Positions 5,281 through 34,652 of a stretch of DNA of 64,000 bases are shown piece by piece. A program made the translations under genes and the position numbers. The notes under the pieces were generated by a model. It ran no database searches. It was not told where the DNA came from and worked only from the letters and a program-made list of their open reading frames with translations. Origin of the DNA: Escherichia coli (GTDB lineage Bacteria; Pseudomonadota; Gammaproteobacteria; Enterobacterales; Enterobacteriaceae); assembly GCF_003334355.1 (NCBI RefSeq), contig NZ_QOWP01000022.1. One strand, 5' to 3'. Within the stretch, counting starts at the first letter, position 1. Each line of letters starts with the position of its first letter.

Positions 5281-8200
5281 TTAGTCAAACTCCAGTTCCA
5301 CCTGCTCCGAACCAATGAGGCCACGGAGATCGTTTAATAAACGATCGCTCGGAGAGACACGCCACGTCGCGCCAAAACGCAACCGCGCGCGTGCATCCGC
5401 CCTCTGATAGTAGAGATGTACTGGAATTGTCCCAGAGCGGTGGGGTTCCAGAGACTGACGGAGTCGGTTTAAAAGCTGGTCATCAATTTGCCTGTCCGTC
5501 AGCGAGATAGCAAGCCCGCGAGCATATTTTTCCCGGGCTTCGTCAATATCCATCACTTCGCGAGCGGTCATTTTAAGCCCACCGCTGAAGTCATCAAAGC
5601 TGACCTGTCCGCTGACGATAAGTATGCGGTCTTTTTCCAGCAATTGCTGGTATTTATCCAGGGCGTCAGTAAACAACATCACTTCCAGCCGCCCGGAACG
5701 GTCATCCAGCGTGCAGATACCGATACGATTGCCGCGCTTGGTGACCATAACCCGCGCGGCAACAACGAGCCCCGCAGCCGTGATGACTTTACCACGTTCT
5801 GTCGGGTGCATGTCTTTCAGCCTTACGCCTCCGACATAACGCTCAATCTCTTTTAAATACTGGTTGATAGGGTGTCCGGTCAGGTACAGGCCTAACGTTT
5901 CACGTTCCCCATCTAATACCACCTGCTCCGGCCACGGTTGGCAGCTGGCGTAGGATTGTTCAATTTGTTCCGGCTCTTCGGCCAGCACGCCGAACATATC
6001 GGCCTGACCGATAGCTTCCGCTTTCGCGTGTTGATCTGCCGCTTTTAACGCATCGCCCAGCGAGTTCATCAGCGCTGCGCGATGTGGCCCAAGACGGTCA
6101 AACGCCCCGGACATGATCAGTTTTTCCAGCACGCGACGGTTCAACTTTTTGGTGTCGGTACGGGCGCAGAGATCAAACAGTTCGCGGAAGTAGCCGCCTT
6201 TATTACGGGCTTCGATGATGGCCTCAATCGGACCTTCACCGACCCCTTTGATCGCGCCAATACCATACACGATTTCGCCGTCGTCGTTGACGTGGAAATG
6301 GTAAAGACCGGAGTTTATATCTGGTGGCAGGATTTTCAGCCCCATCCGCCAGCACTCATCCACCAGACCCACCACCTTCTCGGTGTTGTCCATATCGGCG
6401 GTCATTACCGCCGCCATAAACTCCGCAGGATAGTGCGCTTTCAGCCATAACGTTTGATATGACACCAAAGCATAGGCCGCAGAGTGCGATTTGTTAAATC
6501 CGTAACCAGCGAATTTCTCCACCAGGTCGAAGATTTTCATCGCCAGTTCAGCGTTGATTCCGTTCTTTTCTGCACCTTCAGCAAATACAGAACGTTGCTT
6601 AGCCATCTCTTCCGGCTTTTTCTTACCCATCGCACGACGCAGCATATCCGCGCCACCGAGGGTATAACCAGAAAGCACCTGCGCAATCTGCATGACCTGT
6701 TCCTGATACAGGATAATGCCGTAGGTTGGCTCCAGTACCGGTTTCAGGCTTTCATGCTGCCACTGTACGTCCGGATAGGAGATCTCTTCACGACCATGTT
6801 TACGGTCGATAAAGTTATCCACCATCCCTGATTGCAACGGACCGGGGCGGAACAGTGCCACTAGGGCGATCATATCTTCGAAGCAGTCAGGTTGTAGACG
6901 CTTGATCAGGTCCTTCATGCCGCGCGATTCAAGCTGGAATACCGCCGTGGTTTCCGAGCGTTGCAGCATGTCGAAGCTTTTCTTATCATCCAGCGGGATC
7001 GCAGCGATATCCAGCGGCGGCTCGCCATTCTTCGCCCGCCGCTTGTTGATCATCTCCAGCGCCCAGTTGATGATGGTGAGCGTACGCAAACCAAGGAAGT
7101 CGAACTTCACCAGTCCGGCGTATTCAACGTCGCTTTTATCAAACTGGGTGACCGGATGTTTGCCCTCTTCATCGCAGTAAAGCGGCGCAAAATCGGTAAT
7201 TTTGGTCGGCGCGATAACCACCCCACCGGCGTGCTTACCGGCGTTACGGGTGACCCCTTCCAGTTTGCGCGCCATGTCGATCAGCGCCTTAACTTCTTCA
7301 TCCGCTTCGTAGATTTCCGGCAGCTGCGGCTCGGCTTCAAACGCTTTCGCCAGCGTCATCCCCGGATCGGGCGGGATCAGTTTCGAGATACGATCGACAA
7401 AGCCGTACGGATGCCCCAGCACGCGGCCTACGTCGCGGATCACCGCTTTCGCCGCCATTGTACCGAAGGTGATGATCTGCGATACCGCATCACGACCGTA
7501 CATGTCCGCTACGTGCTCGATAACCTGATCGCGTTTCTCCATACAGAAGTCAACGTCGAAGTCAGGCATGGAGACACGTTCCGGGTTAAGGAAACGTTCG
7601 AACAGCAGGTCAAATTCCAGCGGATCGAGGTCGGTGATTTTCAGCGCGTAGGCCACCAGTGAACCCGCACCGGAGCCACGGCCTGGCCCTACCGGTACGC
7701 CGTTATCTTTCGACCACTGGATAAATTCCATAACGATGAGGAAGTAGCCCGGGAAGCCCATCTGGTTGATAACCTGAAGTTCAGTCTCCAGACGTTCGTC
7801 ATATTCCGGGCGGCGCTTAAGACGTTCTTCCTCATCAGGGAATAAAAAGGCCAGACGCTCTTCCAGGCCCTCTTTTGCACGCTTGACCAGATAATCTTCG
7901 GTGCTCATGTCCCCGGTCGGGAACTGCGGCAGGAAGTATTCACCAAGACGCACGGTTACGTTACAGCGTTTGGCGATCTCAACGGTGTTGGCAAGGGCTT
8001 CGGGGATGTCGGCAAACAGCTCACACATCTCCTCTTCGCTACGCATATATTGCTGCGGCGAATAGTTACGCGGGCGTTTAGGATCGTCGAGGGTAAAGCC
8101 GTCGTGGATCGCGACGCGGATTTCGTGTGCGTCAAAGTCGCTGCTGTCGATAAAGCGCACGTCGTTGGTCGCCACGACGGGCAAACCGCGCGCTTCCGCC

Positions 8201-8763
8201 AGTTCCACCGCCGCGTGCAGATAGCTTTCTTCATCCGGCCTGCCGGTGCGGATCAGCTCGAGAAAATAGCGATCCGGGAAGTGTTCTTCATAAAACGCGA
8301 CACACTCATCTACCAGCGCGCTGTTACCACGCAAAAGACTGCGTCCGACGTCGCCCATGCGTCCGCCGGAAAGAAGGATCAACCCTTCGTTTAATTCGAT
8401 AAGCCAGTCGCGATCGATGATCGGCCCGGCGGCACCGTACCCGCGCTGATACGCTTTTGAGATCAGCAACGTCAGATTCTGATAGCCGGTATTGTTCGCC
8501 GCCAGTACCGTCAGGTGGGTTAACTCATCACCCAGCAGGTCGCACTGGACGTTAAAATCTGCCCCGACGATAGGCTTAATCCCTGCGCCATGTCCCGCTC
8601 CGTAGAACTTCACCAGACCACAAAGGTTGGTGAAATCGGTGATCGCCAGTGCTGGCATACCCAACGCCGCCGCCTTTTTTACCAACGGTGCGGTTTTGGC
8701 CAGGCCATCGATCATCGAGTAGTCGCTGTGCACCCGCAGGTGTACGAAACGTGGTTCAGACAT
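5281..8763 (-). CDS. dnaE: DNA polymerase III alpha subunit
   Basis: 1160 aa ORF recognised as DnaE (PHP domain N-terminus). Confidence 0.97.
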
Positions 8764-8799
8764 CTTCAGATTCCGGTTTACTTAATCTCGACACAAGAA

Positions 8800-9396
8800 T
8801 CAGGACGCAAGTCCCAGTGCGCGTTTGACAGGCCCAAAGCTGCGCCGATGGTGTTCGGTCGCGCCGTGTTCAGCCAGTTTTTCCAGATGAAAAGCGGTTG
8901 GGTACCCTTTGTGTTGGGCAAAACCATATTGCGGGAAAACAATATCCAGCGCCGCCATTTCGGCGTCACGCGTCACTTTCGCCAGGATAGACGCGGCACT
9001 GATTTCCGGTACGCGGCTATCGCCTTTCACCACAGCCATCGCAGGCATCGGTAATTTCGGGCAGCGGTTACCATCAATCAACACATATTCCGGCGCAATA
9101 TGCAGCCCAGCGACGGCACGCTGCATCGCCAGCATGGTCGCATGAAGAATGTTCAGCTCGTCGATTTCGTGGGGTTCCGCGCGGCCCAGACTCCAGCTCA
9201 ACGCTTTCTCTTTGATCTCTTCATAGAGCGCCAGACGGCGTTTTTCGCTCAGCTTTTTGGAATCATTCAGCCCGGCAATCGGGCGCGCCGGGTCAAGGAT
9301 CACCGCAGCGGTGACGACCGCGCCAACTAACGGCCCGCGTCCGACTTCATCCACACCCGCAACCAGCTGCGTGTGCGGATAAACAAATTCGATCAT
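8800..9396 (-). CDS. rnhB: ribonuclease HII
   Basis: 198 aa ORF, recognised RnhB; start overlaps lpxB stop (ATGA-type overlap). Confidence 0.95.
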
Positions 9397-10541
9397 TGTG
9401 CTAACTCCAGAACGGCTTGTGCCGCCTGCTCATCGGCATTGCAGCGGATCTGCTGATGCAGTTCACGGAAGGTATCGTGCATCGCGTGGCTGGTTTTCCC
9501 GTTCGCCAACAGCGGTAACAGCGCCGCAGCCAGTTTTTGCGGCTCACACTCTTCCTGCAATAATTCTTTGACTAACTCTCTGCCCGCCAGCAGATTTGGC
9601 AGCGAGACATAATCAGTTTTCACCAGCCGCTTCGCCAACCAGAAGGTAAAAGGCTTCATGCGATATCCCACCACCATCGGGCATTTCGCCAGCATACACT
9701 CCAGGGCTGCCGTACCCGACGCCAGTAGCGCCGCATCGCTGGCGACCATCGCCTCACGGCCCATCCCATCCAGCAAATGAACTGAAAGGTCTGGCGCGAC
9801 TTCAGCTTTGATGCGTTCAAACTGCTCGCGGCGTTTGGCATTCACCAGTGGCACCACGATTTCGAGATCCGGATATGTCTGGCGCAAAAGCTGGGCCGTT
9901 TTCAGGAAATCGGCACTAAGCATTTCAACTTCTGCACCACGGCTCCCCGGTAGCAACGCCAGGCAGTGGGCATCGTGAGGGATCCCCAGCACATCACGGG
10001 CGGCATTTTTATCTGGATCTAATGGCATGGCATCAGCCATGGTATGACCGATAAAGCGGCACGGTACGTTGTATTTGTCATAAAACGCTTTTTCGAAAGG
10101 CAGAAATGCGAGCACCAGATCGGTGGCTCTGCCTATTTTGAAAACACGTTTCTGTCGCCACGCCCAGACTGACGGACTGACGTAATGAATGGTTTTGATA
10201 CCCTGCTTTTTGAGGTTACCTTCAAGAGTAATATTGAAGTCAGGCGCATCAATACCAACAAAAACATCTGGCTTCAGTTCGCCAAAACGCTTTGTCAGAT
10301 CGGCACGAATATGCAGTAAGCGACGCAGACGACCGAGCACTTCAACAATGCCCATCACCGCCAGTTCTTCCATTTCGTACCAGGCTTCGCAGCCTTCAGC
10401 CTGCATTCGTGGCCCGGCAACACCAACAAAGCGGGCGTTGGGCACATGTTCTTTCAGAGCGCGGATTAAACCGGCCCCCAGGATATCGCCGGAGGTTTCT
10501 CCGGCGACCAGGGCAATCGTTAATGGACGCTGTTCAGTCAT
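9393..10541 (-). CDS. lpxB: lipid-A-disaccharide synthase
   Basis: 382 aa ORF recognised as LpxB. Confidence 0.95.
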
Positions 10542-11329
10542 TAACGAATCAGACCGCGCGTTGAGCGTGCAAAGAAATCGGTAAAGGCTTTCACTTCCGG
10601 ATATGTTTCCGCCAGTTCAGCAATTTCCGGTTTCACTTCATCGAGCGTTTTACCGCTACGATAAATCAGCTTATACGCATTGCGGATAGCGGTAATCGCC
10701 TCACGGCTGAATCCGCGGCGCTTCAGCCCTTCGATATTGACACCGAACGGCGTTGCGTGGTTACCCTGCGCAATGACATAAGGAGGGACGTCCTGCGCCA
10801 CACCGGAGCAGCCGCCAACCATCACGTGCGCACCAATGATGCAGAACTGATGGACTGCGGTCATGCCGCCGATGATCGCGAAGTCGTCAACCGATACGTG
10901 ACCCGCCAGCGTTGCGTTGTTGGCGAGAATACAGCGGTTACCTACCGTACAATCGTGCGCAATGTGCGCGTTGATCATCAGTAAGTTGTCGCTGCCCACC
11001 TTCGTCAATCCACCGCCCTGGACTGTGCCACGATGAATGGTGACGCTTTCGCGAATGCGGTTACGATCGCCGATTTCCACACGGGTCGGTTCGCCAGCAT
11101 ATTTCAGATCCTGGTTAACTTCGCCGATGGAGGCGAACTGATAAATCTCATTATCGCGGCCAATTTTAGTATGACCATTCACGACAACGTGAGATTTCAG
11201 TACGGTACCCTCACCAATTTCGACATGGGGTCCAACGATACAAAAAGGACCAATGTGTGCGTTCGCGCCAATTGACGCGCCCTCTTCCACAATGGCGGTT
11301 GGATGCACAAAGGCGGATTTATCAATCAC
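10541..11329 (-). CDS. lpxA: UDP-N-acetylglucosamine O-acyltransferase
   Basis: 262 aa ORF with hexapeptide-repeat character; recognised LpxA. Confidence 0.95.
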
Positions 11330-11332
11330 GTA

Positions 11333-11788
11333 TCAGGCCTCCCGGCTACGAGCACACATCATCGTTGCTTCGCAAACTACTTTACCATCGACCAGAGCAA
11401 CCCCTTTAAAACGGGTCAGGCCGCGGCGCGTTTTTTCGAAAGTGACTTCCATGATCATTTGATCGCCAGGCACGACCGGGCGCTTGAAGCGCGCTTCGTC
11501 AATACCAGCGAAGTAGTACAGCTCACCCGGTTCCAGTTTTCCTACGCTTTTAAACGCCAGAATACCTGTTGCCTGTGCCATTGCTTCCAGAATCAGCACA
11601 CCCGGGAAAATCGGTTTTCCAGGGAAATGGCCCTGGAAGAATGGCTCATTGACAGAGACATTTTTTACTGCGCGCAGAAAACGACCTTCTTCAAAATCCA
11701 GCACGCGATCCACCAGTAAGAACGGGAAACGGTGCGGCAGAAGTTCTAAAATCTCTTCAATCTGCAGAGTATGAGTGTTAGTAGTCAA
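11333..11788 (-). CDS. fabZ: 3-hydroxyacyl-ACP dehydratase FabZ (TTG start)
   Basis: ORF contains the FabZ sequence [28 protein letters not shown]...; start placed at TTG codon at 11786-11788 giving 151 aa. Confidence 0.9.
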
Positions 11789-11892
11789 GATACTCTTCCT
11801 GTCAAAATATAAGAAACGACAATAATAACACGGCCTGCCGCAATCGTAAGAATGAGACAGGCCGTAAAGTTTGGCGAACAAAAGATGGAACG

Positions 11893-12918
11893 TTAGTCTT
11901 GTTGATTAACCTTGCGCTCAAGCGATTTCAGACGCTTGCTCATGTCATCAATGTTCATCACCAGTGCAGCGGTTTTGCGCCAGACTTTGTTGGGTTGCAG
12001 CGGAATGCCTGAGGAATAGACGCCTGGTTCAGTGATGGGACGCATCACCATACCCATGCCCGTAACCGTCACTTTGTCGCATATTTCCATATGCCCGTTG
12101 ATTACGCTGGCTCCGCCGATCATGCAGTAACGACCAATTTTCAGGCTGCCCGCCATAATGACGCCACCGGCAACCGCCGTATTGTCGCCAATCACGACGT
12201 TATGTGCAATCTGGCACTGGTTATCAATGATCACGCCATTGCCAATAATAGTGTCATCCAGCGCGCCGCGATCGATGGTTGTGCAGGCACCGATCTCCAC
12301 GCGATCGCCAATAATTACGCGACCAATCTGTGGGATCTTCACCCAGTTACCACGATCGTTGGCATAACCAAAGCCGTCTGCGCCTACCACTGTTCCGGAC
12401 TGGATCAGGCAATTCTGACCGATCTGGATCTCATGGTAAATGGTTACGTTCGCCCAGAGACGCGAACCTGCACCGATTTTGCTGTTTTTACCTACGAAGC
12501 AACCGGCACCGATAATCACGTTATCGCCCAGTTCAACGCCGGACTCAATCACCGCGTTAGCGCCAATCGATACGTTGTTACCCAGCTTCGCCGTCGCGTC
12601 GATCACCGCACTGGGTGCAATGTTCTGCGCGGGCTGCGGCGTGGTATCTAAAATTTGCGCCATGCGCGCGTAAGTCAGGTAGGGATTCTTCACTACCAGT
12701 GCGGCACTTTTCGCGAAAGGAAGATCGTCCTGGGTCATGACAACCGCGGACGCCTGGCACAAGCCTAAATGCTCACGGTATTTTGGGTTAACCATGAACG
12801 TAATGTGACCTGTTTGTGCAGATTGCATGGACGCAACGCCGGTGATGACGATATCGCCATCACCGTGTAGTTCTGCATCCAACTGCTGCGCTAAATCAGC
12901 CAGTCGAATTGAAGGCAT
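11893..12918 (-). CDS. lpxD: UDP-3-O-(3-hydroxymyristoyl)glucosamine N-acyltransferase
   Basis: 341 aa ORF recognised as LpxD. Confidence 0.95.
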
Positions 12919-12921
12919 TAC

Positions 12922-31580: not shown

Positions 31581-33005
31581 TTACTGCATTAACAGGTAGA
31601 TGGTGCTGTCGCCGCGCTGAATGTTGAGTGCCAGCACAGACGGTTTGCTGTCGAGAACTTTACGCAGTTCAGCGATGTTTTTCACTGCCTGCTGGTTCGC
31701 GCCAATAATCACATCACCTTTCTTCAGGCCGATCTGCGCAGCCGGAGTGCCCGTTTTCACGTTGTTCACTACCACGCCCTGATCTTTGCCTTTGTTGCTC
31801 ATCTCAGCGCCTTCAATGCCGTTGAAGATGGAGCTGGAATCAACCTGATTCTGGCTGCTCTGCTGCAGTTCCAGGTTCACGTTAACCTGCTTACCGTCGC
31901 GCAGTAAGCCCAGGGTCAGTTTGCTGCCTACCGGCATAGTACCCACCTGAGCACGCAGTGCGGCAAAGCTGCTGATCGGCTTACCGTTCAGTGAGGTGAT
32001 CACATCACCCGCTTTAATGCCCGCTTTTGCAGCGGAGGAATTAGGCAGAACCTGGCTTACGAAAGCACCGCGCTGGGCGTCAACTTTCATCGCTTTCGCC
32101 AGTTCGGAGTTCAGCTCAGTCCCCATAATACCCAGCTCACCGCGTTTCACCTGGCCGTATTCCACCATCTGCGAGGTCAGGTTTTTCACCATGTTACTCG
32201 GGATAGCAAAACCGATACCGATGTTGCCGCCGTCCGGTGCGAGGATCGCGGTGTTGATACCGATCAGTTCGCCGTTCAGGTTAACCAGCGCACCACCGGA
32301 GTTACCACGGTTGATCGCTGCATCGGTCTGGATGAAGTTTTCGTAGTTTTCGGCATTCAGGCCGCTACGCCCCAGCGCAGAGACAATCCCGGAAGTTACC
32401 GTCTCGCCCAGACCAAACGGGTTACCAATCGCTACGGTGTAATCACCCACGCGCAGTGCATCAGAATCCGCCATCTTAATTGCGGTCAGGTTTTTCGGGT
32501 TCTGGATTTGGATCAGCGCGATATCAGAGCGCGGATCTTTGCCAACCATCTTCGCGTCGAACTTACGGCCATCGCTCAGTTGAACTTTAATGACCGTCGC
32601 GTTATCAACAACGTGGTTGTTGGTGACGACATAGCCTTTATCGGCATCAATGATGACGCCGGAACCCAGCGCCATGAATTTCTGTTGCTGGCCGCCACCA
32701 TTACCGCCCTGGCCACCCTGGCAGAACGGAGAGCTCTGGAACGGAGAACCTTCCTGGCAGAACGGAGAATCATCACCGAAGAACTGCTGGAAATTACGCG
32801 GCATACGCGGCGTATTAACGGTTGTGCTACCTTCTACGTTAATGCTGACCACTGAAGGCATCACCTTTTCGAGCATCGGTGCAAGGCTTGGCATCTGCTG
32901 GGCTGTCGTTGCTGAAGAAGTCTCAGCCGCCGTTGCAGAGAGCGGAGATAACGCCAAACCTAAACTCAGAGCCAGTGCACTCAGTGCTAATGTGGTTTTT
33001 TTCAT
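31581..33005 (-). CDS. degP: periplasmic serine endoprotease/chaperone DegP (HtrA)
   Basis: 474 aa ORF with signal peptide, trypsin-like domain (GNSGG) and two PDZ regions. Confidence 0.97.
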   Translation of the reverse strand: MKKTTLALSALALSLGLALSPLSATAAETSSATTAQQMPSLAPMLEKVMPSVVSINVEGSTTVNTPRMPRNFQQFFGDDSPFCQEGSPFQSSPFCQGGQGGNGGGQQQKFMALGSGVIIDADKGYVVTNNHVVDNATVIKVQLSDGRKFDAKMVGKDPRSDIALIQIQNPKNLTAIKMADSDALRVGDYTVAIGNPFGLGETVTSGIVSALGRSGLNAENYENFIQTDAAINRGNSGGALVNLNGELIGINTAILAPDGGNIGIGFAIPSNMVKNLTSQMVEYGQVKRGELGIMGTELNSELAKAMKVDAQRGAFVSQVLPNSSAAKAGIKAGDVITSLNGKPISSFAALRAQVGTMPVGSKLTLGLLRDGKQVNVNLELQQSSQNQVDSSSIFNGIEGAEMSNKGKDQGVVVNNVKTGTPAAQIGLKKGDVIIGANQQAVKNIAELRKVLDSKPSVLALNIQRGDSTIYLLMQ

Positions 33006-33050
33006 GTATTTCAGTCTCGATTAACAGATAACGCAAAATTGCTGTGTTCT

Positions 33051-33078
33051 TCAGATTCGTTTTATAGCCTGAAGTTCC
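33051..33078 (-). promoter_or_regulatory. sigma-E type promoter upstream of degP
   Basis: On minus strand GGAACTT, then 16 nt, then TCTGA, about 45 bp upstream of degP start; matches sigma-E -35/-10 consensus. Confidence 0.75.
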
Positions 33079-33134
33079 GAACTAAAGTTTCTGCAAAAGG
33101 TAAAAATTTATTGTTCGTCTTTACAAAAGCCTGG

Positions 33135-34652
33135 TTATTGTTCTACGGCCATCAGACGTCGGTATTCATCCCACGCATAGAGGTCGGTCATACCGCTGAT
33201 ATAATCCTGCAGCAGGCGGCAACGGTAATAATATTCCCATAGCGGAAACTCAGGAGAATCTGACGGTAATTTACTGACAGCCTCGACATAGGCCAGCCGA
33301 TGGCGCGTCGAGAGTTTGTGGAATAAGCGCGATTCAATAGGGAAACGTTTCACCCGTTCTTTTTCTACCAGTTCAGTAAAGTCTGATAACGACAGGCTTA
33401 ATAAAGGACGATAAATCTCTAATAATCCGCTAATGACCCGATAGCCCTGCAATTCAAGCTGCTCGACATCTGGATGGCTAAACACATGTTTTACAGCGAC
33501 ATTTTTATATAGCTTAAGAAGATCGCTGCATTCGCTGGCATCTTCCAATAATGCATGATTAAACGTTCCGGCGAAAATCGCAGGCAGATTATCAATAAAT
33601 CGTTGTGCCGCGTAGGGTACCAGTTTATTTAGGGTGTTTACTCGTAAATACATAAAAAACTGATCTTCCGTACTGCGACTTAAACTATTTGAGCGTGATT
33701 TTTCCCAGGCATTTTCAACCACTAGCGAAAAGAGCGAACCTTTCTCATGCTGGCCCCACGCTTCGTGCAAATGATGATAAAGCTGCTCAACGGTAAATAT
33801 TCTTTTCTCTACCGCATCTTCAAGGTCTGCCACACAATAGGAGATGTCGTCGGCAGCTTCCATAATCCACGTTAATGGAAAACGACTGTAAAGCGCCAAA
33901 TTAAGTTCTTTACGCAACCGCGCAATATAGGCTTCTTCAGAAAGATAATAACCCGGCTTTTTCATTAAATAGTGATGTGTCTCAGGCGTTTCGCCACGCC
34001 ACCACGCCGGACGGGTATATTTTAAAATACCGCCAACCTGTGCCCAGGTGAGATTCATCCGCATCAATGTATGCACCAGACGAATGCCTTGTGCATTCCC
34101 CTCAAAATGACATAAGTCCTGACGAATCTTGCGCCGCAGCTCGTTAAGCGGTTCTTCCCCGTCCCGTAAACGTAGTGCCGCCACGCTGCAGCGATCGTCA
34201 GTCAGAGGCTGGCTTTCGGCATCTTCCGGGTGCAAACGTTGGCGAAACCAGTCATTTATCGCTGCTTCGCCAAAATGACCAAACGGCGGATTGCCGATAT
34301 CGTGCATCAGGCATGACATCTCAACAATGCTTTCAAAGGGGCCGGTCAGTTCATCCAGGCCGTATGCTTCCAGCAATTTAAGCTCTTTCAGACGGCTTAA
34401 AATTTCTTTGGCGATGTAGCGTCCCACCTGCTGGACTTCCATCGAGTGGGTAAGACGCGTGCGCACGGCGGCATTGCGCTCCAGTGGAAAAACCTGGGTC
34501 TTTTGTTGCAGACGACGAATTGCCGGAGAGTTGATGATACGCCCGCGATCGCTCTCGAAGATCCGCAGGATCTCATGTTCGGTTTTAACGCCCTGCGGTG
34601 AACGGTAACGACGATGCCAGTTTATTTTTTTTCGGAAATCAATCTGTGCCAT
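33135..34652 (-). CDS. dgt: dGTP triphosphohydrolase
   Basis: 505 aa ORF with HD-domain motifs; recognised Dgt. Confidence 0.95.

Follow-up and report, generated by a model that had tools for sequence, protein, structure and literature searches.

The known sigma-E-dependent promoter of degP and its control region in an Escherichia coli contig

The stretch of E. coli DNA analysed here (contig NZ_QOWP01000022.1; 64,000 nucleotides, called the window below) is the reverse complement of the K-12 map, the window position being equal to 213889 minus the MG1655 coordinate. Over 30 kb, it aligns with MG1655 without gaps and with 99.39% identity. This text deals mainly with the 129 bp between the stop codon of dgt and the ATG of degP, both on the minus strand; within this spacer, and in the correct orientation, lies the sigma-E motif to which an earlier note on this DNA had drawn attention. 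The minus strand in the region reads ...tagttcGGAACTTcaggctataaaacgaaTCTGAagaacACAGCAATTTTGCG...ATG. The features of this control region are listed in Table 1, together with those of a second sigma-E-controlled locus in the window. On the opposite strand, an open reading frame of 67 amino acids (33039..33242) runs antisense over the promoter; it extends across the conserved regulatory spacer into the 3' end of dgt, shows no evidence of being a gene and was rejected.

Table 1. Features of the degP control region and of the rseP-to-dnaE block (window positions; numbers with a minus sign are relative to the putative +1 at 33045).
Feature	Position	Strand	Basis or remark
dgt (dGTPase), upstream gene	34652..33135	-	ORF list, RefSeq annotation
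Distal CpxR box GTAAATTACCGTCAG	33274..33260	-	-229 to -215, in the dgt 3' end; identical to listed 'degP2'
Proximal CpxR box GTAAAGACGAACAAT	33124..33110	-	-79 to -65; identical to listed 'degP1 (htrA)'
A/T-rich upstream region, UP-element-like	33108..33079	-	-63 to -34; overlaps the promoter-proximal end of the CpxR region
Inverted TTTAC of the proximal CpxR region (33124..33100)	33104..33100	-	-59 to -55
Sigma-E -35 element GGAACTT	33078..33072	-	Read directly; -33 to -27
Sigma-E spacer CAGGCTATAAAACGAA, 16 nt	33071..33056	-	Read directly
Sigma-E -10 element TCTGA	33055..33051	-	Read directly; -10 to -6
Putative transcription start A	33045	-	From the geometry, the start of the Rfam HtrA leader and the Salmonella 40-nt UTR
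degP leader, HtrA fourU RNA thermometer match	33045..33000	-	Rfam RF02700
degP CDS, 474 aa periplasmic serine endoprotease	33005..31581	-	ORF list, RefSeq annotation, map to MG1655 b0161
rseP-bamA-skp-lpxD-fabZ-lpxA-lpxB-rnhB-dnaE	17343..5281	-	Mapped from MG1655
rseP	17343..15991	-	Mapped from MG1655
bamA	15961..13529	-	Mapped from MG1655
skp	13407..12922	-	Mapped from MG1655
lpxD	12918..11893	-	Mapped from MG1655

The earlier note described the motif as GGAACTT and TCTGA, 16 nt apart, on the minus strand at 33051-33078, and a direct reading of that strand gives exactly this sequence at exactly these positions. The rules against which it can be judged come from 28 sigma-E-dependent starts mapped by Rhodius et al. 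in 2006, which gave GGAACTT(TT) for the -35 element and (T/C)GGTCAAAA, measured from TCAAA, for the -10 element (PMC1312014). The -35 element matches this consensus at all seven positions, and the -10 element matches TCAAA at three of five, retaining the T, the C and the final A and deviating at the two middle positions. Published sigma-E spacers are 15-19 nt long, with 16 strongly preferred, the discriminator has 5 or 6 nt, the distance from the -35 element to +1 is 25-28 nt (mainly 26 or 27) and transcription starts at a purine (PMC1312014). At the degP site the spacer has 16 nt, the discriminator 5 nt (AGAAC), the distance from -35 to +1 is 26 nt and the start is a purine, A33045, the last three values depending on the placement of +1. 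Sigma-E promoters also carry a 30-nt A/T-rich block 5' of the -35 element (PMC1312014), and the A+T content of 33108..33079 is 73%, against 48.5% for the whole window. In its -35 and -10 elements, its spacing and start, its A/T-rich upstream block and its conservation at the orthologous position in other species (see below), the site has the sequence characteristics of a sigma-E promoter.

The end of the -10 element and the degP ATG at 33005 are separated by 46 nt. Two independent observations point to the position of the start: the Rfam model for the HtrA leader, which derives from the Salmonella transcript, has the first base of its alignment at exactly 33045, and the stress-induced htrA transcript of Salmonella (htrAp3) has a 5' UTR of 40 nt (PMC5602114), the same length as a start at 33045 gives here. 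From these, we infer that in this strain +1 is A33045 or an adjacent base. The leader of 40 nt bears out the earlier estimate of a start about 40 bp upstream of the ATG. The htrA/degP start site was reportedly mapped by Lipinska et al. in 1988, and Erickson and Gross are said to have found in 1989 that sigma-E holoenzyme uses the degP promoter in vitro. Our literature search returned no primer-extension data for the degP start.

Between positions 33460 and 31461, the window has zero differences from MG1655; the dgt-degP control region is therefore that of K-12, base for base. When an 801-nt query around the site was compared with 5,426 complete E. coli genomes, it matched 5,425 of them, with dgt and degP (serine endoprotease DegP) as the annotated genes. 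Within the spacer of the promoter, the bases at 33070-33069 are AG, as in K-12, against GC in EDL933, AHB4 and most other genera (CAGGC versus CGCGC). The 141-nt control region is at least 99% identical in 1,389 of the 5,425 genomes and falls into the 95-99% band in the other 4,036; among the matches listed, all those in this band are 98.6% identical (two mismatches). Judged from these alignments, the K-12-type AG is the minority allele, present in roughly one in four E. coli genomes. A larger change is seen in strain 2017-19-1CC (NZ_AP027854.1), in which an IS1 element is inserted right after the dgt stop codon, adding 777 bases with a 9-bp duplication, TAACCAGGC, equivalent to window 33129..33137. 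The insertion lies between the distal CpxR box on one side and the proximal box and sigma-E promoter on the other, and leaves the latter two intact.

For comparison beyond E. coli, a peptide-pattern scan with one genome per species gave 80 Enterobacteriaceae degP loci with 83-100% DegP identity, from genera that include Escherichia, Citrobacter, Salmonella, Enterobacter, Klebsiella, Kluyvera, Kosakonia, Buttiauxella and Mangrovibacter. The region from -230 to +15 was aligned for the loci of 79 other species and the window, 80 sequences altogether. The sigma-E site is present at the same place in 79 of the 79 other species. Its -35 element is GGAACTT in 62 sequences, GGAACTA in 12 and TGAACTT in 6, so that the core GAACT is found in 80/80; the -10 element is TCTGA in 67, TCTTA in 7 and TCTCA in 3, with three Buttiauxella sequences offset by one base, and the spacer has 16 nt in 77/80. 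The bases immediately 5' of the -35 element and 3' of the -10 element vary freely, and in this alignment the phylogenetic footprint is confined to the two promoter elements. In many genera, a 7-nt insertion (for example TAGTCAC) is present between the -10 element and a conserved ACACAGCAA block; in these genera, either the start site or the leader length cannot be the same as in E. coli.

The control region contains two elements that the earlier note did not mention, the CpxR sites and the leader RNA element. Upstream of the promoter, GTAAA-N5-6-GTAAA boxes are present as GTAAAGACGAACAAT and GTAAATTACCGTCAG, the degP1 and degP2 entries in a list of 41 known CpxR sites (PMC9600279 Table S1). 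The first half-site of the boxes is conserved across the 80 sequences and the second half-sites are degenerate. Two blocks, TTGTAAAGA and CAATAAATTTTTAC, rank among the best conserved of the intergenic region in the same alignment, and the inverted TTTAC falls within CAATAAATTTTTAC. Activation of the Cpx pathway induces degP 26.6-fold in a cpxA24 background and 32.4-fold with pnlpE (PMC9600279 Table 1). The degP promoter joins two envelope-stress pathways, sigma-E and Cpx, as the literature already describes.

The dependence of degP on sigma-E is well documented. Transcription by RpoE was demonstrated for degP/htrA as the second gene, after rpoH P3 (reviewed in PMC8103513), and degP belongs to the conserved core of the sigma-E regulon (PMC1312014). 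In a transcriptome study, it showed the strongest sigma-E induction, 56.3-fold on overproduction of sigma-E (PMC2731931 Table 2). The degP promoter was also one of the 60 sigma-E promoters in a library of cloned segments from -65 to +20, and was active at basal levels of sigma-E; it was an outlier in the published model of promoter strength (PMC3326320), suggesting that more than the core motifs is needed to account for its activity.

Counted by itself, the motif is only moderately persuasive, its evidence being weak to moderate. The exact two-block pattern has one match in the window and none in 100 dinucleotide-preserving shuffles; if one mismatch is allowed, a match is found in 20/100 shuffles, and GGAACTT-N15-17-TCNNA is matched in 24/100. 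For GGAACTT alone, the window has four occurrences where 6.7 would be expected. A scan by mismatches to the consensus (at most two in the -35 element and at most one to TCAAA in the -10 element, with the C fixed) was discarded as not discriminating; it gave about 70 scattered matches and missed the degP site, because TCTGA carries two mismatches to TCAAA. One might therefore argue, since relaxed forms of the motif arise by chance in 20-76% of shuffled windows, that the match lacks promoter function, degP being served by read-through out of dgt or by promoters within dgt, where Salmonella does have an extra, far-upstream htrA start (PMC5602114). The likelihood of this is negligible. It is at odds with the lack of exact matches in the 100 shuffles, with a core that stays invariant, and equally far from the ATG, in 80 sequences whose flanking bases drift, and with published experiments on this very sequence (PMC3326320, PMC8103513, PMC2731931). 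Beyond the motif statistics, the position, orientation and conservation of the site are the decisive evidence against a chance match, a reading that conservation and published work have already effectively refuted.

The main promoter of degP could instead be of the sigma-70 type, activated by CpxR and overlapping the sigma-E motif, which would leave GGAACTT/TCTGA with a secondary role. In such a promoter, TATAAA/TAAAAC from the spacer would serve as the -10 hexamer and transcription would start about 7 nt further upstream, near 33052. The strong conservation across genera of TATAAA (33066..33061, minus strand) within the sigma-E spacer would fit, as would the conserved CpxR boxes at -79 to -55 and the second htrA start of Salmonella, which lies 7 nt further upstream than the start of the 40-nt UTR and gives a UTR of 47 nt (PMC5602114). 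However, no acceptable -35 hexamer is located 16-18 nt upstream of TATAAA/TAAAAC, and in E. coli a C replaces the critical last T of the Salmonella-type TAAAAT. In addition, sigma-E alone induces degP 56-fold, whereas CpxR overproduction alone does not induce it, which the authors explain by the dependence on sigma-E (PMC2731931). A scan for sigma-70 promoters and terminators over 32600-33600 gave nothing on the degP strand. A main promoter of the sigma-70 type is thus improbable, and an overlapping one would at most be a minor addition to the sigma-E promoter, not a replacement for it. We conclude, with a probability of about 97%, that the site is degPp, from which degP/htrA of E. coli is transcribed in dependence on RpoE (sigma-E, sigma-24). 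The sigma-E reading put forward earlier is upheld by the published sequence rules, by phylogenetic conservation and by the literature; the promoter at this site is already known, a textbook sigma-E promoter, and finding it here is ordinary.

In an Rfam scan of all 64,000 nucleotides, the degP leader matches family RF02700 over all 46 positions of the model (1-46 of 46) and scores 77 bits, the gathering score being 52. In the structure of the model, the UUUU at 33038..33035 pairs with the GAGA of the Shine-Dalgarno sequence (33018..33015). The HtrA fourU thermometer has been characterised in Salmonella with reporter assays and SHAPE, and thermometer function has been shown for Salmonella only (PMC5602114). 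Position 33014 is C in E. coli and other Escherichia and U in most genera, which places an A.C mismatch in the lower stem (model pair 7-32). For the E. coli leader, ViennaRNA predicts a minimum free energy at 37 °C of -3.0 kcal/mol, against -6.8 kcal/mol for the Rfam consensus. The Shine-Dalgarno sequence is predicted to be unpaired with a probability of about 0.5-0.65 at all temperatures, against 0.02-0.14 for the Salmonella type, and shuffled sequences fold at least as well as the E. coli leader (z = +1.02). Covariation in the leader hairpin over 52 species was at the level of shuffles (73.5% paired versus 73.7%), with double changes at two pairs only; as UUUU and GAGA are conserved, there is little variation on which such a test can act. 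Stable fourU hairpins are also predicted to be absent from several other genera (the Citrobacter freundii group, Klebsiella, Kosakonia and Atlantibacter). In the searchable literature, we found no test of the E. coli leader as a thermometer. The score places the leader in RF02700, while its behaviour as a thermometer in E. coli is doubtful on the folding predictions.

Tentatively, the U-to-C change at 33014 may have largely disabled the fourU thermometer of Escherichia, and the AG allele of the spacer might tune promoter strength, although we regard this as rather unlikely. With the thermometer disabled, heat control of DegP synthesis in E. coli would be purely transcriptional, through sigma-E and Cpx; in Salmonella, in some Citrobacter and in some Enterobacter, translational control would come on top of this. 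The leader hairpin is the one loose end of modest value, being a thermometer in Salmonella and predicted to be much weaker in Escherichia and several other genera.

The same envelope-stress regulon had been thought plausibly to cover the nearby rseP-bamA-skp-lpxD block, and this is correct: Table 2 of PMC2731931 groups rseP-yaeT(bamA)-hlpA(skp)-lpxD-fabZ-lpxA-lpxB-rnhB-dnaE into a single sigma-E-induced unit, with three earlier studies in agreement and with inductions of 7.4-fold for rseP, 3.7-fold for bamA and 5.8-fold for lpxD. The distance from the degP promoter is 15.7 kb to rseP and 20.1 kb to lpxD, in line with the earlier statement that two envelope-stress loci lie within about 20 kb of each other. 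Thirteen unrelated protein-coding genes, from cdaR to cdsA, lie between degP and rseP. Given 28-89 sigma-E units in a genome of 4.64 Mb, the probability of another unit within 20 kb on either side is 0.21-0.54; the proximity of the two loci therefore has no special meaning. Upstream of rseP, neither inspection by eye nor a scan revealed a convincing sigma-E promoter. The best sigma-E-like candidate in the block is inside rseP, at 16897..16870 on the minus strand and about 0.9 kb upstream of the bamA ATG, where GGAACTA and TCGAA are separated by 16 nt and followed by ACGCCT-G. From its sequence, it may act as a promoter within the rseP-bamA unit.

Elsewhere in the window, two further Rfam families score above their gathering thresholds on the minus strand, CssrA in the rpsB-tsf spacer (23095..23204, 136.6 bits) and t44/tff upstream of rpsB (24043..24129, 83.5 bits); no tRNA genes were found in the window. 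The last 181 bases (63820..64000) are 100% identical to part of IS1, and collinearity with MG1655 ends at 63821, inside yadC, the gene for a fimbrial tip adhesin. Together, these observations indicate that the strain has an IS1 in yadC that is absent from K-12. Between 26000 and 30000, the successive kilobases contain 11, 37, 60 and 15 mismatches to MG1655, against 0-7 per kb elsewhere. This divergent patch spans yaeI-dapD and the start of glnD, and from the mismatch pattern looks like a recombination tract.

A scheme for the control of degP can be drawn up by combining the sequence, geometry, K-12 identity, conservation and Rfam match established here with the published sigma-E and Cpx dependence of degP and the published regulon membership of the rseP-to-dnaE unit. 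Unfolded outer-membrane proteins would lead DegS and RseP to cleave the anti-sigma factor RseA, setting sigma-E free. The sigma-E RNA polymerase holoenzyme would then bind GGAACTT as its -35 and TCTGA as its -10 element, 16 nt apart, and start at or next to A33045, yielding degP mRNA with a 40-nt leader. Phosphorylated CpxR at the GTAAA-type boxes (centred near -72/-57 and near -222) would increase transcription, presumably by contacting the polymerase. The leader may fold into a short fourU hairpin over the ribosome-binding site, which acts as a thermometer in Salmonella and is predicted to be weak in Escherichia. The degP site teaches nothing new about envelope-stress regulation. It serves as a positive control and is no discovery: a founding sigma-E promoter was recognised from the sequence alone, to the base.

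Among known systems, degPp of E. coli K-12 MG1655, which is sigma-24 dependent and activated by CpxR, has the same sequence, the same dgt and degP flanks and the same two CpxR boxes, and its control region does not differ from that of the window. The other founding sigma-E promoter is rpoH P3. Following the account of Erickson and Gross from 1989, it is said to have a -35 element of the GAACTT type and TCTGA as its -10 element, with 16 nt between them, and so to share the non-consensus -10 element of degP. Unlike the degP promoter, rpoH P3 drives the gene for the cytoplasmic heat-shock sigma factor, and we know of no CpxR boxes or fourU leader associated with it. The htrAp3 promoter of Salmonella enterica has the same -35 and -10 elements, the same 16-nt spacer, the same distance to the ATG and the same Rfam leader family as E. 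coli degP. The two leaders differ in the lower stem, which is fully paired in Salmonella (GAGAUUG, versus GAGACUG in E. coli), and in their predicted stability at 37 °C, which is -5.8 to -6.8 kcal/mol for Salmonella against -3.0 kcal/mol for E. coli.
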